The notes under the pieces are model-generated. The model ran no database searches. It was not told where the DNA came from and worked only from the letters and a program-made list of their open reading frames with translations. 64,000 bases of DNA from Escherichia phage PECP20, in the sequence record OQ873415.1; one strand, given 5' to 3'. The translations under genes and the position numbers were made by a program. Shown here piece by piece: positions 38,838-49,337 of this stretch; position 1 is the stretch's first letter; each line of letters starts with the position of its first letter.

Positions 38838-38845
38838 TATAAATA
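38838..38845 (+). promoter_or_regulatory. late promoter (TATAAATA) for gene 34
   Basis: Exact TATAAATA 35 nt upstream of the gene 34 ATG. Confidence 0.6.
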
Positions 38846-42721: not shown

Positions 42722-43846
42722 ATGGAAAAATTTATGGCAAGGTTTGGACAGGGATACGTCCAAACGCCGTTTTTATCGGAAAGCAATTCAGTTAGATTTA
42801 AGCTAAGTATAGCGGGTTCATGCCCGCTTTCAACAACTAATCCGTATATTTTGTTCCAAAACGAGCCTTTAGGGTTGCAGTCTTTTGGTATTGGACTAAA
42901 TGTTAGGGTGATAAATCCGGAAAATGGAACTATAGTTGATAGTAAATTATACAATTTTGCGCCTACAAATAATGCAACTTCAGCTGCATTTATTTCGTTT
43001 GTTAATACATACGCGGATAATTTCATTTTCGCATTTATTTCTAATAACAAATTTAATTTGCCACCAGAAATAATTGAATGGTTTAAAGCTGCTGGGAGTT
43101 CAGTTATACCGTCAATTGAAGTTGCTAGTCTTGTTGATATTTCATATTCAGCGTTTTATGTTTCAGGTAAAAATACTATTGCATTAGAACACATAAAATA
43201 CAGTAATAAGAAAACAATTTCTGATTACGCAACCCCATTAGATATTGTATATGACTCTATTGCTGATATAGGTGCTACCGGCTATCCTAGACGTACATAT
43301 GAAGCTTTAGAAACGTTTTTATCTCCTGTTGGAGGAACTAACAATGAAATAAAAAGGATGCCTACGTCATCCCTTGTTACTCCTATCGCAAACTATGGAT
43401 TAAAGCCTGCAGATTTTCTTTATTTGAAATTTCAATTAATGGCTGATGAAGAATTATTAGAGGAAGGAACCACAAGACTTTCAATTCGTTTCTTTAAGTC
43501 TCCATCTAGCTCTCCTATATCATCTAAAGATATAAACTTTGATGGAACTGCCGGGGAGTGGAAGTTATATGAAGAATACGTTGAAATACCAGCTGAAGCT
43601 GATGGCTTTACAGTATATTGTTACCGTACGGCCTCAGTCGGTCAAGGTGGACTAAGAAATGTTATTTTCACTGAAGTATCATGTAACGGAAGTATAGCAA
43701 AACCCGCCGAGTTTGGCCTAAACGGTATTCGTGCTAATTACATCGATGAATCATTAATCGGTAATGATATAATGGACTTGCCTACCCAGTTATCTAACGA
43801 CACAGGTAAGGTATTTGGGCAGGAATTTAAAGAGTACACAGAATAA
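42722..43846 (+). CDS. 35: gp35 long tail fibre hinge
   Basis: 374 aa directly after gene 34. Confidence 0.88.
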   Translation: MEKFMARFGQGYVQTPFLSESNSVRFKLSIAGSCPLSTTNPYILFQNEPLGLQSFGIGLNVRVINPENGTIVDSKLYNFAPTNNATSAAFISFVNTYADNFIFAFISNNKFNLPPEIIEWFKAAGSSVIPSIEVASLVDISYSAFYVSGKNTIALEHIKYSNKKTISDYATPLDIVYDSIADIGATGYPRRTYEALETFLSPVGGTNNEIKRMPTSSLVTPIANYGLKPADFLYLKFQLMADEELLEEGTTRLSIRFFKSPSSSPISSKDINFDGTAGEWKLYEEYVEIPAEADGFTVYCYRTASVGQGGLRNVIFTEVSCNGSIAKPAEFGLNGIRANYIDESLIGNDIMDLPTQLSNDTGKVFGQEFKEYTE

Positions 43847-43871: not shown

Positions 43872-43879
43872 TATAAATA
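43872..43879 (+). promoter_or_regulatory. late promoter (TATAAATA) for genes 36-37-38
   Basis: Exact TATAAATA 27 nt upstream of the gene 36 ATG, SD AAGGAG. Confidence 0.6.
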
Positions 43880-44570: not shown

Positions 44571-47500
44571 ATGGCTACTTTAAAACAAATACAATTTAAA
44601 AGAAGCAAAACTGCAGGAGCACGTCCTGCCGCTTCAGTATTAGCCGAAGGTGAATTGGCTATAAACTTAAAAGACCGTGTACTTTTTACTAAAGATGACC
44701 AAGGAAATATTATTGATCTAGGTTTTGCTAAAGGTGGTAGTATTGACGGGAATGTTATTCATACTGGCAATTACAACCAAACTGGTGATTATACTTTAAA
44801 TGGCGTCTTCACACAGACGGGTAATTTTAATTTAACTGGTATTGCTCGAGTAACTCGCGATATTATTGCCGCCGGGCAGATTATGACTGAAGGCGGTGAA
44901 CTTATTACAAAAAGTTCAGGCACAGCACATGTTCGTTTTTTCGATAACAATAGTCGCGAACGCGGAATCATTTATGCCCCGGCTAATGATGGTTTAACTA
45001 CACAAGTACTTAATATCAGGGTTCAAGACTATGCCGCTGGTAGCGAAAGCACTTATGCATTTTCAGGCAGTGGACTATTTACTTCACCTGAAGTATCAGC
45101 ATGGAAATCTATTTCGTCTCCACAAATTCTAACCAACAAAGTCATTACTAATAATAAATCTACGGGTGATTATGACATCTATTCGATGGCAGACAATGTT
45201 CCATTGTCTGAAAGCACTACTGCTATTAATCATCTTCGTGTCATGCGTAATGCCGTTGGTTCTGGTATTTTCCATGAAGTTAAAGATAATGATGGAATAA
45301 CTTGGTATAGTGGAGATGGATTAGATGCTTATCTTTGGTCATTTACCTGGAGCGGCGGAATTAAATCAAGTCACTCAATTTCTATCGGTTTAACACCAGG
45401 TAATAAAGATTATTCAATATTAGGACCATCTAGCATTGCTTTAGGAGATAATGATACTGGATTTAAATGGCATCAAGACGGATATTATTTCAGCGTTAAT
45501 AATGGAACAAAAACGTTTTTATTTAATCCTAGCGAAACAACTAGCCTAAGAAAATTTGTAGCTGGATATTCTACTAATGGAACCGATTTAACTACTCCTC
45601 CAACTGAAAACTATGCTCTTGCTACTGTTGTGACATATCACGATAATAACGCGTTTGGAGATGGTCAGACTCTTTTGGGATATTATCAAGGCGGTAACTA
45701 TCATCATTATTTCCGCGGCAAGGGTACTACAAACATTAATACTCACGGCGGTTTGTTAGTTACTCCTGGTAATATTGACGTTATTGGCGGTTCTGTAAAT
45801 ATAGATGGTAGAAATAATTCTTCTACACTAATGTTTAGAGGCAACACAACAGGATACAGCTCGGTTGATAATATGGATATTAAAGTTTGGGGTAATACGT
45901 TTGTTGATCCAAGCGGAGGTATCCGTAAAAACATTATGGAAATTTCTGATGCAACTAGCTGGATGAGCTATATTCAAAGACTTACTACTGGCGAAGTAGA
46001 AATGAACGTTAATGGTTCATTTGAATCATCTGGTGTTACTGCTGGAGATAGAGGAGTTCACACAACAGGTGAAATTTCATCTGGAGCAATGAATGCACTT
46101 CGCATTTGGAATGCAGATTATGGAGCCATTTTTAGACGTTCAGAAGGTAGTCTTCATATTATTCCAACTGCTTACGGTGAAGGCAAAAATGGTGATATCG
46201 GTCCACTTCGCCCGTTTAGTATGGCTTTAGATACCGGTAAAGTTACTATTCCAGATTTACAATCAAGTTACAATACGTTCGCAGCGAACGGCTATATTAA
46301 ATTTGTTGGTCATGGCGCTGGCGCAGGTGGATATGATATTCAATATGCCCAAGCGGCTCCTATTTTCCAGGAAATTGATGATGATGCTGTAAGCAAATAT
46401 TATCCTATTGTTAAACAGAAGTTTTTAAATGGTAAAGCCGTTTGGTCTTTAGGTACTGAAATTAATTCGGGTACATTCGTTATTCATCATCTGAAAGAAG
46501 ATGGATCACAAGGCCATACGTCTCGTTTTAATCAAGACGGTACTGTTAACTTCCCAGATAACGTTTCTGTTGGCGGCGGTGAAGCTACTATTGCTCGCAA
46601 TGGTAATATCTGGTCTGATATCTGGAAAACGTTTACTTCTGCCGGTGATACTACAAATATTCGCGATGCTATTGCGACTCGTGTTTCGAAAGAAGGCGAC
46701 ACGATGACCGGCACTCTTTGGATTAATAAAGATGCCGCTGGAATAGTTCTTAATCCTCCTTTGACCAGTGATTCATCATTTATTCGTTCTGATACGGCCG
46801 GGGCCAATAATTGGTATATTGGTAAAGGCGGTGCCGACAATGGTCTAGGTTTTTACAGTTATGTTACACAAGGCGGTGTATATATAACAAATAACGGAGA
46901 AATATCACTTTCTCCTCAAGGCCAAGGAACATTTAATTTTAATAGAGACCGCCTCCATATAAACGGTACACAATGGGCCGCACACCAGGGCGGTGGTTGG
47001 GGAAATCAATGGAATCAAGAAGCACCGGTATTTGTAGATTTTGGTAATGTTGGTAATGATAGTTATTATCCTATTATTAAAGGAAAATCCGGTATTACTA
47101 ATGAAGGATACATATCTGGTGTAGATTTTGGTATGCGACGCATTACTAATACATGGGCACAAGGTATTATTCGTGTAGGTAATCAGGAAAACGGTTACGA
47201 CCCACAAGCTGTATATGAATTCCATCATAACGGTACTTTTTATGCTCCAAGCTTACTTAAGAGCAGTAGAGTATCAGCTGGTGGTGGTGACCCTGCATGG
47301 GGCGGGCCGTGTATTGTACTTGGAGATAACGATACCGGTTTGCTTTGGGAAAACGATGGTATTTTCAACGCATATGCAAACGGCCAAGGTGTGTTTAGTT
47401 TTAGACCTGGTTTAGCTCAGACATTCGGTGATGTTAACTTCCACTGTAATGCAGGTATGTATGTTCGTGATAACATTGATGTTAATGACGTTTATATTCG

Positions 47501-47822
47501 TTCTGATATTCGTTGTAAGTCGGAAATTAAGCTTATTAAGAACGCTCAAGAGAAATCTAAACTATTGGGCGGTTATACTTATCTGCTTAAAAACTCTGTT
47601 ACAGACGAAGTTAAACCGTCCGCAGGTTTAATTGCTCAGGAAGTTCAAGAAGTATTACCTGAACTTGTTTCTGAAGATAAAGAGACCGGACTGCTTCGTT
47701 TGAACTATAACGGTATTATTGGTTTAAATACAGCTGCAATAAACGAGCATACAGATGAAATCAAGGAATTGAAATCTGAAATTACCGAATTGAAAGCATT
47801 AATTAAATCATTGATAAAATAA
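44571..47822 (+). CDS. 37: gp37 long tail fibre distal subunit with C-terminal intramolecular chaperone (peptidase S74-like) domain
   Basis: 1083 aa; conserved N-terminus MATLKQIQFKRSKTAGARPAASVLAEGELAINL; C-terminal about 114 aa (VYIRSDIRCKSEIKLIKNAQEK...coiled coil) resembles self-cleaving chaperone domains of T5 pb1, endosialidases and T2/S16 gp37. Confidence 0.9.
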   Translation: MATLKQIQFKRSKTAGARPAASVLAEGELAINLKDRVLFTKDDQGNIIDLGFAKGGSIDGNVIHTGNYNQTGDYTLNGVFTQTGNFNLTGIARVTRDIIAAGQIMTEGGELITKSSGTAHVRFFDNNSRERGIIYAPANDGLTTQVLNIRVQDYAAGSESTYAFSGSGLFTSPEVSAWKSISSPQILTNKVITNNKSTGDYDIYSMADNVPLSESTTAINHLRVMRNAVGSGIFHEVKDNDGITWYSGDGLDAYLWSFTWSGGIKSSHSISIGLTPGNKDYSILGPSSIALGDNDTGFKWHQDGYYFSVNNGTKTFLFNPSETTSLRKFVAGYSTNGTDLTTPPTENYALATVVTYHDNNAFGDGQTLLGYYQGGNYHHYFRGKGTTNINTHGGLLVTPGNIDVIGGSVNIDGRNNSSTLMFRGNTTGYSSVDNMDIKVWGNTFVDPSGGIRKNIMEISDATSWMSYIQRLTTGEVEMNVNGSFESSGVTAGDRGVHTTGEISSGAMNALRIWNADYGAIFRRSEGSLHIIPTAYGEGKNGDIGPLRPFSMALDTGKVTIPDLQSSYNTFAANGYIKFVGHGAGAGGYDIQYAQAAPIFQEIDDDAVSKYYPIVKQKFLNGKAVWSLGTEINSGTFVIHHLKEDGSQGHTSRFNQDGTVNFPDNVSVGGGEATIARNGNIWSDIWKTFTSAGDTTNIRDAIATRVSKEGDTMTGTLWINKDAAGIVLNPPLTSDSSFIRSDTAGANNWYIGKGGADNGLGFYSYVTQGGVYITNNGEISLSPQGQGTFNFNRDRLHINGTQWAAHQGGGWGNQWNQEAPVFVDFGNVGNDSYYPIIKGKSGITNEGYISGVDFGMRRITNTWAQGIIRVGNQENGYDPQAVYEFHHNGTFYAPSLLKSSRVSAGGGDPAWGGPCIVLGDNDTGLLWENDGIFNAYANGQGVFSFRPGLAQTFGDVNFHCNAGMYVRDNIDVNDVYIRSDIRCKSEIKLIKNAQEKSKLLGGYTYLLKNSVTDEVKPSAGLIAQEVQEVLPELVSEDKETGLLRLNYNGIIGLNTAAINEHTDEIKELKSEITELKALIKSLIK
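47478..47819 (+). other. gp37 C-terminal intramolecular chaperone / autoproteolytic domain
   Basis: Motif YIRSDIRCK (Ser-Lys dyad context) followed by a predicted coiled-coil tail. Confidence 0.55.
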
Positions 47823-47827
47823 TAAAA

Positions 47828-47841
47828 GGGCCTTCGGGCCC
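47828..47841 (+). other. GC hairpin between genes 37 and 38
   Basis: GGGCCTTCGGGCCC directly after the gene 37 stop and before the gene 38 SD GGAGG; no U-tract. Confidence 0.4.
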
Positions 47842-47852
47842 TGGAGGTTTAT

Positions 47853-48632
47853 ATGGCAGTAGTAGGAATCCCTGGTTGGATTGGGACTTCAGCCGTTGCT
47901 GAAACGGGACAAAGATGGATGACGGCTGCTTCAAGGGAACTTCGTTTAGGAAACCCTTCATGGATGTCCCAATTCGCGGGCCGTTCAAGAGAAATAATTC
48001 ACACACTTGGAGCAGACCATAACTTCAACGGTCAATGGTTCCGAGATAGATGTTTTGAGGCAGGTAGTGCACCTATAGTGTTTAATATCACCGGAAATTT
48101 GGTATCATATAGTAAAGATGTTCCATTATTCTTTATGTATGGCGATACGCCAAATGAATATGTTACTTTGAATATTCATGGTGGAGTTCATATGTGGGGA
48201 CGAGGTGGTAACGGTACTGTAAACGGAAACCCAGGCACTAATGGTGGCGATGTAATCCAAAATGATATCGGCGGAAGACTTCGTATTTGGAACTATGGTG
48301 TTATTGCATCAGGCGGTGGCGGAGGTGGTGCAGTGTCATTACAGAATAGCTGGGCGCCAAATGCTACAGCAGGTGGCGGTGGTGGTAGACCATTTGGCAT
48401 CGGCGGAGGTGGAGTTAATTGGCCGGGTGGTAATGCTAGTTATGACGCCCCGGGCGGGGCCGGTTACACTTCCCAATTCGGCGGAGGCAATGGCGGTGAT
48501 GCTGGAGGTCGTGGCGGAGATGGATGGGGTAATCACTTATCTAGATCTGGCGGTGGTGCTCCTGGCAGAGCAGTATTCGGAAGTTCACCGTCATGGGGTG
48601 CTACAGGCACAATCTACGGCTCCTGGATTTAA
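47853..48632 (+). CDS. 38: gp38 T2-type receptor-binding adhesin
   Basis: 259 aa; N-terminal gp37-attachment region [23 protein letters not shown]...[43 protein letters not shown] is T2 gp38-like; C-terminal half has glycine-rich motifs separated by variable segments. Confidence 0.9.
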
Positions 48633-48650: not shown

Positions 48651-48658
48651 TATAAATA
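48651..48658 (+). promoter_or_regulatory. late promoter (TATAAATA) for holin gene t
   Basis: Exact TATAAATA about 8 nt upstream of SD GGGAGG. Confidence 0.6.
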
Positions 48659-48665
48659 TTGATAA

Positions 48666-49337
48666 ATGGGAGGTAATATGGCAGCACCAAAAGTATCATT
48701 TTCGCCTAGTGATATTTTATTTGGGTTGCTAGACCGCATTTTCAAAGATAACGCCTCTGGAAATATTCTTATTTCAAGAGTTGCTGTTGTAGTTCTTTTG
48801 TTCCTAATGGCACTAATATGGTACAAAGGGAATATTTTTATGGATTATTACGTGAGGTCGAAATATGATACTTACACAGAAGTAATTCAAAAAGAAAGAA
48901 ATACACGATTTGAATCTGCGGCTTTAGAACAACTACAAATAGTCCACGTCACATCAAGGGCGGATTTTAGTTCGGTGTATTCTTTCAGACCTAAAAATCT
49001 AAATTATTTCGTCGACCTTATTGCGTATGAAGGTAAGTTACCTAGCACAGTAACTGAAAAATCTATGGGAGGATTTCCTGTTGATAAAACGACAGCAGAA
49101 TATTCGGTCCATTTAAGTGGACTTCACTTTACTTCTAAAACAGATTTTGCTTTCTTACCTACCAAATCAAAAACTCCGGAACTGGCGTATATGTATAGTT
49201 GTCCTTACTTCAATTTGGATAACATATATGCGGGAACTGTTTCTATGTATTGGTATAAGGGATCGGATGTGCTAAATGAAGAACGCTTGGCTGCAATATG
49301 CAACCAAGCAGCAAGGATATTAGGGCGGGCTAAATAA
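48666..49337 (+). CDS. t: holin T
   Basis: 223 aa; single N-terminal TM (VAVVVLLFLMALIWY) and large periplasmic domain; T4 T-like throughout. Confidence 0.93.
   Translation: MGGNMAAPKVSFSPSDILFGLLDRIFKDNASGNILISRVAVVVLLFLMALIWYKGNIFMDYYVRSKYDTYTEVIQKERNTRFESAALEQLQIVHVTSRADFSSVYSFRPKNLNYFVDLIAYEGKLPSTVTEKSMGGFPVDKTTAEYSVHLSGLHFTSKTDFAFLPTKSKTPELAYMYSCPYFNLDNIYAGTVSMYWYKGSDVLNEERLAAICNQAARILGRAK

Follow-up and report, generated by a model that had tools for sequence, protein, structure and literature searches.

The distal subunit gene of the long tail fibre of the T2-like Escherichia phage PECP20 raises the question of whether its product, gp37, reaches the virion at full length or is synthesised as a precursor whose C-terminus is a chaperone that cleaves itself off before the tip is capped by the product of the following gene, gp38. 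The locus was analysed within a window of 64,000 nucleotides of the sequence record OQ873415.1, in which it corresponds to the following reading frame:

44571..47822 (stop codon included), plus strand: gene 37, long tail fibre distal subunit precursor (ORF of 1083 aa, 117.0 kDa)

The identity of the gene is supported by a full-length match of gp37 to PHROG 1699, “long tail fiber protein distal subunit” (1336.7 bits), and by the DNA identity of the locus with Escherichia phages CCU7 (99.6%) and CAU_ECP01 (99.2%), where its counterparts carry the annotation “long tail fiber distal subunit”. We consider it highly probable that gp37 is a precursor bearing an S74-type, self-cleaved intramolecular chaperone (IMC) at its C-terminus, with the cut placed between Arg977 and Ser978.

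A Peptidase_S74 domain at the C-terminus of gp37

The original prediction proposed that roughly the last 114 residues of gp37 form an autoproteolytic chaperone domain ending in a coiled coil, and suggested a hmmscan for Peptidase_S74. Positions 47478-47819, read in the frame of gp37, encode residues 970-1083 (DVNDVYIRSDIRCKSEIKLIKNAQEK...IKSLIK), identical to the peptide quoted in that prediction. The Pfam family PF13884 (Peptidase_S74, “chaperone of endosialidase”) was found with the whole gp37 at residues 978-1033 with 45.5 bits (E 9.6e-12), above the gathering cutoff of 22 bits, and with the 114-aa piece alone with 51.2 bits (E 1.5e-13), the match spanning model positions 1-57/58. The presence of this domain at the extreme C-terminus of the 1083-aa protein is therefore confirmed:

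47502..47819, plus strand: intramolecular chaperone domain (gp37 residues 978-1083, 106 aa, 11.8 kDa)

The domain opens with an alpha/beta portion that contains the motif GLIAQEVQEVLPELV and continues into a long C-terminal heptad-repeat helix. The coiled-coil tail was correctly anticipated, as a continuous helix is predicted over about residues 1046-1082, with a heptad pattern in which one core position is occupied by Ile and the other mostly by Leu. A homologue search with the 114-aa piece returned 19 matches, mostly short gene-call fragments, which served alignment depth only. A profile built from 17 relatives and compared with the six-frame translation of the window matched only the gp37 C-terminus (E 3.5e-53; next best E 0.1) and gave no sign of a further S74 domain in the window.

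Predicted fold and structural relatives

The AF2 monomer model (pLDDT 85.5) consists of strands followed by a helix at model residues 93-129, which correspond to the C-terminal helix at about gp37 residues 1046-1082. When this model was submitted to Foldseek, the best match was the ICA domain of MyRF (7DC3, E 4e-6, TM 0.68), and the chaperone of the K1F endosialidase (3GW6) was retrieved with a probability of 1.00. Among sequence searches against the PDB, single-sequence phmmer found gp37 of phage S16 (6F45, E 1.4e-24) and, weakly, 7DC3, with no others, and the 17-sequence profile found 6F45 (E 3.5e-36) and 7DC3 (E 3.5e-17), together with the tail fibre 8JOV, the GA-1 chaperone 3GUD and the L-shaped tail fibre 8HQZ. 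The phmmer match to S16 and the Pfam score concur in assigning the gp37 C-terminus to the S74-type chaperones. Neither phmmer nor the 17-sequence profile reached K1F 3GW6 or T5 4UW8 in the PDB, and the K1F link consequently rests on Pfam and the fold search. The ties to both structures are drawn from the Pfam family, the modelled fold and T5-like homologues.

Cleavage motif and predicted site of autoproteolysis

The S-D-x-R-x-K motif announced by the original prediction was recovered at the start of the domain in the alignment of relatives, and occurs once across all six frames of the window:

47502..47519, plus strand: autoproteolysis motif S978-D-I-R-C-K983

Ser978 is encoded by TCT (47502-47504) and Lys983 by AAG (47517-47519). 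Lys983 is invariant (17/17 aligned relatives), and Ser978 and Asp979 are kept in every aligned relative covering them, including T2, STP4-a, T5-like, rV5 and cyanophage sequences. From this conservation, Ser978 is predicted to be the catalytic, scissile serine and Lys983 the general base.

In the K1F/T5 mechanism, an upstream arginine from a neighbouring subunit and an aspartate constitute the folding sensor and the oxyanion hole. Sequence comparison yielded no placement of either residue in gp37: Arg966 and Arg977 are candidates for the arginine, at positions which are not conserved among the window, S16, T2 and RB51; the residues preceding the motif serine also vary among these four.

The bond predicted to be cleaved is Arg977-Ser978, within DVYIR^SDIRCK, on the basis of the start of the S74 model at residue 978, of the alignment with S16 and the Yersinia fPS phages (PMC7917993) and of the scissile bond of T5 (PMC4690869). 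This differs from the mature end “near residue 970” first proposed, Arg977 being instead the predicted last residue, and the released piece would count 106 residues (Ser978-Lys1083) rather than about 114, because the domain proper begins at Ser978:

44571..47501, plus strand: predicted mature gp37 (residues 1-977, 105.3 kDa, ending ...NIDVNDVYIR)

A cut one residue further, between Ser978 and Asp979, would make the serine the C-terminal residue of mature gp37 and leave the domain and its function unchanged. It appears improbable given that the mature proteins of T5 pb1 and K1F lack the serine (PMC4690869), that the 3GUD chain, the domain released from GA-1, opens with SDERHK, and that the S16 cut is reported to lie before the motif serine (PMC7917993).

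The adjacent gene 38 and the type of fibre tip

Gene 37 is followed by a short spacer and gene 38:

47828..47843, plus strand: GGGCC-UUCG-GGCCC tetraloop hairpin of the 37-38 spacer, directly 5' of the gene 38 Shine-Dalgarno
47844-47848, plus strand: gene 38 Shine-Dalgarno GGAGG, read from the sequence
47853..48632, plus strand: gene 38, tail fibre adhesin of the T2 type (259 aa; gp37-attachment domain at the N-terminus, motifs rich in glycine)

The product of gene 38 matches the Pfam families PF05268 (GP38, 279 bits) and PF21721 (Gp38_N, 74.2 bits) as well as PHROG 2056, “tail fiber protein; host specificity”. It is 91% identical to its counterpart in RB51, 52% to that of T2 and 51% to that of STP4-a, and its poly-Gly blocks are conserved in the alignment with the latter two. 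Similarity with T4 gp38 is absent. In close relatives, gp38 is labelled “long tail fiber assembly chaperone” in GenBank, which the adhesin reading corrects.

That label is what would favour a fibre whose S74-like domain stays in place as a trimerisation module and does not cleave, with full-length gp37 in the virion and gp38 either attached at another site or serving solely in assembly. We regard this as very unlikely: the name is inherited from T4, whose chaperone gp38 is unlike the present protein, a member of the adhesin family PF05268; the catalytic Ser and Lys of the gp37 domain are intact and conserved; and the homologous gp37 of T2 and S16 are reported as cleaved (PMC3157838, PMC7917993). 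A T4-type tip, with the receptor-binding needle on gp37 itself and gp38 merely as a folding chaperone, can be dismissed, since the homology of gp37 residues 1-640 to T4 gp37 (34% identity) ends at about residue 640, the Collar and Phage_fiber domains of T4 gp37 are missing from this protein as S74 is from T4 gp37, and the two gp38 are unrelated. The same comparison, with T4 gp37 lacking S74 and T4 gp38 being unrelated, upholds the T2-type rather than T4-type tip initially proposed, and by analogy the receptor specificity of PECP20 would be placed in gp38, not in gp37.

The spacer hairpin has a folding energy of -12.3 kcal/mol with a z-score of only -1.0, and is identical, together with the Shine-Dalgarno, in Salmonella phage STP4-a. 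A role as terminator was rejected, as it is not followed by a T-run and abuts the Shine-Dalgarno of gene 38. Scans for tRNA and Rfam families gave no matches in the window.

Proposed maturation of the fibre tip

By analogy with T2, S16, T5 and K1F, from which the chaperone role, the cleavage and its exact bond, the release of the domain and the capping by gp38 are transposed, the following sequence of events can be proposed for the self-cleaved precursor. gp37 would be synthesised as a 1083-aa precursor whose last 106 residues form the Peptidase S74-type chaperone. Three copies of the chaperone would join through their C-terminal helical bundle, and the resulting trimer would nucleate the trimerisation of gp37 and the folding of its distal beta-structured tip, starting from the C-terminal side. 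After correct folding of the trimer, the hydroxyl of Ser978, activated by Lys983, would cut the Arg977-Ser978 bond in each chain. The chaperone trimer would then dissociate and uncover a flat tip built of the ...DVYIR strands, which would finally be capped by the adhesin gp38. The ...NIDVNDVYIR end of the predicted mature gp37 is presumed to be the docking strand for gp38.

Module boundaries and practical meaning

Up to around residue 880, gp37 and its RB51 counterpart share about 95% identity. Over about residues 900-1040, a stretch that takes in the final turns of the shaft, the predicted cleavage site and the initial half of the chaperone, the value falls to 35-55%, while it recovers to 87% in the coiled-coil tail and amounts to 91% for gp38. 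In the comparison with STP4-a, identity rises to about 85% exactly at RDN(I/L)DVNDVYIR. One tentative reading, which we hold to be somewhat less probable than its contrary, has the chaperone's alpha/beta half co-evolving with the tip it folds and being swapped along with it, so that the helical bundle and the DVY[IV]R dock for gp38 would be interchangeable constants. If true, it would provide a usable rule for choosing cut points in T-even fibre engineering.

The S74 family, the way its domains work and the fact that T2-type gp37 carries one are already known (PMC3157838, PMC7917993, PMC4690869), and the gp37 domain described here is real but ordinary, opening no new question. In practice, the mature form of gp37 is best modelled as residues 1-977, and fibre chimeras should keep the DVYIR^SDIRCK junction with a compatible chaperone for the tip to be able to fold.

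Comparison with known systems

Among the closest known systems is that of Salmonella phage S16 (PDB 6F45), in which the IMC of gp37 is reported to be autocleaved at DLNVS^SDRRIKK and to uncover the docking surface of gp38 (Dunne et al. 2018, as cited in PMC7917993). In both phages gp37 ends in an IMC and its gene precedes the adhesin gene 38; they also share a gp38 of PF05268/PF21721 architecture and an end-to-end alignment of the 116 C-terminal residues of gp37, where xxxxS^SDRRIK faces DVYIR^SDIRCK. They differ in the shaft and tip sequence ahead of the cleavage site, in the P1 residue (Arg here, Ser in S16) and in the length of the IMC, 106 aa here against 113 reported for S16. In the S16-like phage STP4-a, the IMC is 83% identical to that of PECP20, but gp38 just 51%.

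T2 shares with PECP20 the genus-level genome context, the gene order 36-37-38-t, the adhesin gp38 and an S74 domain in gp37 (57.6 bits) with the junction NVYIR^SDIRLK, and the C-terminal proteolytic processing of T2 gp37 followed by capping with gp38 is described (Drexler, Riede & Henning 1986, as cited in PMC3157838). Unlike in PECP20, the C-terminal helix is shorter in T2, its gp37 is longer (1341 aa by annotated coordinates) and the two IMCs are only about 37% identical. In the Yersinia phages fPS-2, -65 and -90, an Arg/Ser cleavage preceding gp38 docking was predicted at DVYIR^SDGRLKI (PMC7917993); the DVYIR strand right before S-D-x-R-x-K is identical to that of PECP20, while the motif reads SDGRLKI instead of SDIRCKS, the comparison concerning the junction alone.

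K1F (3GW6; S74 in MEROPS and Pfam) and T5 pb1 belong to the same Pfam family and display the Ser...Lys(+5) dyad where the domain begins, the domain itself lying at the C-terminus of a trimeric fibre or spike. In T5 pb1, a Ser/Lys mechanism cleaves Thr1263-Ser1264 and the substitution S1264A abolishes the release (PMC4690869). T5-like fibre proteins are homologous to the gp37 domain with 37.6% identity. The link is remote, the structural alignment with 3GW6 giving 12-13% identity, and the T5 domain counts 133 aa against 106 here. The T5 chaperone has long beta-hairpin “tentacles”. The client domains of K1F and T5, an endosialidase beta-helix or a bullet domain, are unrelated to the gp37 tip. 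Finally, the best fold match, the ICA domain of MyRF (7DC3), is described as a member of the same family, an auto-processing domain acting as intramolecular chaperone, but it belongs to a eukaryotic membrane-bound protein in which the cleavage frees a transcription factor, not a fibre.

Identification of a C-terminal intramolecular chaperone in gp37

The large ORF located below was identified by sequence comparison as gene 37 of a T-even phage.

44571..47822, + strand: gene 37, distal long tail fibre subunit (gp37), large ORF of 1083 aa

PHROG 1699 ("long tail fiber protein distal subunit") covers gp37 from end to end with 1336.7 bits, and the DNA of genes 37-38 shows 99.6% identity with Escherichia phage CCU7 and 99.2% with CAU_ECP01 (Straboviridae), where the gene order around the locus is rnh / 34 / 35 / 36 / 37 / 38 / t / asiA. 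Positions 47478-47819, translated in the gp37 frame, give DVNDVYIRSDIRCKSEIKLIKNAQEK...ELKALIKSLIK (residues 970-1083), exactly the peptide for which the original prediction had proposed a self-cleaving chaperone domain on a T2-type fibre tip.

Several independent lines of evidence establish that the gp37 C-terminus is an S74 intramolecular chaperone. Residues 978-1033 belong to the Pfam family PF13884 (Peptidase_S74, "Chaperone of endosialidase") and span positions 1-57 of its 58-position model; the whole protein scores 45.5 bits and the fragment alone 51.2 bits (curated cutoff, 22 bits). PDB 6F45, the S16 "long tail fiber distal subunit", can be aligned over the C-terminal 116 residues with no large gap (E 1.4e-24). 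A profile of 17 relatives, including T2, STP4-a, a T5-like phage, rV5, a cyanophage and metagenomic proteins, matches the MyRF ICA domain 7DC3 (E 3.5e-17), as well as the tail fibre 8JOV, the L-shaped tail fibre 8HQZ and 3GUD, the released chaperone of the GA-1 neck appendage, whose chain starts with SDERHK. In the corresponding alignment Lys983 is invariant, Ser978 and Asp979 are found in all relatives spanning these positions, and the GLIAQEV...LPE core is likewise conserved. The AlphaFold2 model of residues 954-1083 (mean pLDDT 85.5) displays a small alpha/beta unit followed by one long helix with heptad repeats, in agreement with the coiled-coil tail previously proposed. Searched against the PDB with Foldseek, this model retrieved the MyRF ICA domain first (E 4e-6, TM 0.68), then the K1F endosialidase intramolecular chaperone 3GW6 (probability 1.00), all further matches being noise. 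The domain is in terminal position with its Ser/Lys dyad intact; the S-D-x-R-x-K motif claimed for it is unique among the six translated frames of the window, where the profile search likewise found no second S74 copy. The original prediction was thus supported in every computable respect. Among 1820 phage records, comparison at the protein level retrieves this chaperone subtype with an identity of at least 80% in only about 52.

Position of the cleavage site and proposed mechanism

Cleavage of T5 pb1 takes place at Thr1263-Ser1264; the serine, activated by Lys1269, departs with the chaperone (PMC4690869). For S16 gp37, PMC7917993 gives the site as DLNVS^SDRRIKK, and an Arg/Ser cleavage is predicted at DVYIR^SDGRLKI in Yersinia fPS phages (PMC7917993), which share with gp37 an identical strand, DVYIR, before the motif serine. 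The 3GUD chain also begins at this serine. Since all four cases point to a cut before the motif serine, the predicted cut in gp37 lies, by alignment, between Arg977 and Ser978; a bond located after the serine, as formerly modelled for phi29, is a minor alternative beside them. With the cut before Ser978, predicted mature gp37 comprises residues 1-977 (105.3 kDa) and the predicted released fragment residues 978-1083 (106 aa, 11.8 kDa), close to the mature end near residue 970 and the chaperone of about 114 residues initially proposed, both slightly off. The upstream positions at which an Arg/Asp would complete the catalytic site differ among the window, S16, T2 and RB51.

By analogy with T5, K1F, S16 and T2, three chaperone domains would bundle through their helices and act as a folding template for the trimeric tip; once the tip is properly folded, the catalytic site would be in place, every chain would cut its own 977-978 bond, the chaperone trimer would depart and gp38 would then dock onto the DVYIR platform and bind the receptor. 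T-even fibres also require the general chaperone gp57A, and the S74 domain is therefore probably not the only folding aid.

Mosaicism of the fibre tip

Compared with RB51, gp37 is about 95% identical as far as about residue 880, falls to 35-55% between about 880/900 and 1040 (window ~47210-47690), a patch that takes in the final turns of the shaft, the predicted cleavage site and the chaperone's first half, and returns to 87% in the terminal helix, gp38 being 91% identical. With Salmonella phage STP4-a the tip similarity is modest and rises to about 85% precisely at RDN(I/L)DVNDVYIR. This uneven identity agrees with the modular exchange already known for fibre tips and gives a hint that the chaperone's alpha/beta half may move together with the tip it folds.

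Two other domain matches were observed among the fibre genes. Residues 453-550 of gp37 (window 45927-46220) match Gp34_trimer (PF21446) with 30.3 bits for a cutoff of 27, which T2 gp37 also exceeds (32.9 bits) and T4 gp37 does not reach (25.5 bits), raising the possibility of a trimerisation module common to the proximal and distal half-fibres. Residues 58-131 of the hinge protein gp35 (window 42722-43846) match ILEI (PF15711, "Interleukin-like EMT inducer"), an unexpected family in a phage fibre hinge, with 30.2 bits, barely above the cutoff of 27.

Transcription and translation signals around genes 36-38

38838-38845: T4-type late promoter box TATAAATA, just upstream of gene 34
43872-43879: T4-type late promoter box TATAAATA, just upstream of gene 36
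47828-47843: GGGCC-UUCG-GGCCC tetraloop hairpin in the 37-38 spacer (window 47826-47852)
48651-48658: T4-type late promoter box TATAAATA, just upstream of gene t
48666-49337: gene t, mechanical ORF call

Boxes precede genes 36 and t and none precedes gene 37 or 38, so genes 36-37-38 probably form a single late transcript; the 12 boxes counted across the window do not significantly exceed the shuffle mean of 7.9. Gene 37 ends in two stop codons (TAA TAA), and the 30 nt between these and the start of gene 38 contain the hairpin (-12.3 kcal/mol; z only -1.0 vs shuffles), directly adjoining the Shine-Dalgarno GGAGG of gene 38. Hairpin and Shine-Dalgarno are unchanged in STP4-a, though the coding DNA on either side has diverged. 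A terminator-like role was rejected because no T-run follows, and the hairpin may serve to stabilise the mRNA or to couple translation. The mechanical start of gene t lies merely 8 nt past a box; the CAU_ECP01 annotation places it at the equivalent of 48678 (MAAPKVSF...), a more plausible holin start.

Comparison with known fibre tips

The adjacent gp38 (window 47853-48632) is of adhesin type, with an attachment domain, and shares 52% identity with T2 gp38 and 51% with STP4-a gp38, poly-glycine blocks included, whereas similarity with T4 gp38 is not detectable. T2 gp37 likewise carries S74 (57.6 bits; junction NVYIR^SDIRLK), while T4 gp37 aligns only with residues 1-640 (34% identity) and carries Collar and Phage_fiber domains but no S74. 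These comparisons support a T2-type rather than a T4-type tip, as originally proposed. T2 gp37 is reported to undergo C-terminal proteolysis before gp38 caps it (PMC3157838), and in S16 chaperone autocleavage is reported to uncover the gp38 docking surface (PMC7917993).

Several close GenBank relatives label this adhesin "long tail fiber assembly chaperone" or "distal long tail fiber assembly catalyst" (e.g. CAU_ECP01, DNA record L001, 9283-10062 in its own coordinates). The "assembly chaperone" label is a carry-over from the unrelated T4 gp38, at odds with the PF05268 adhesin match; correcting this unfit, T4-derived label in some relatives' records is the sole useful amendment.

Nothing of substance in the S74 finding is new: Pfam and MEROPS both have curated entries for the family, and GenBank includes near-identical phage genomes. 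T2 gp37 processing has been known since 1986 (PMC3157838), the structure of the S16 tip appeared in 2018 (cited in PMC7917993), and work from 2021 dealt with the identical DVYIR^SD junction (PMC7917993).
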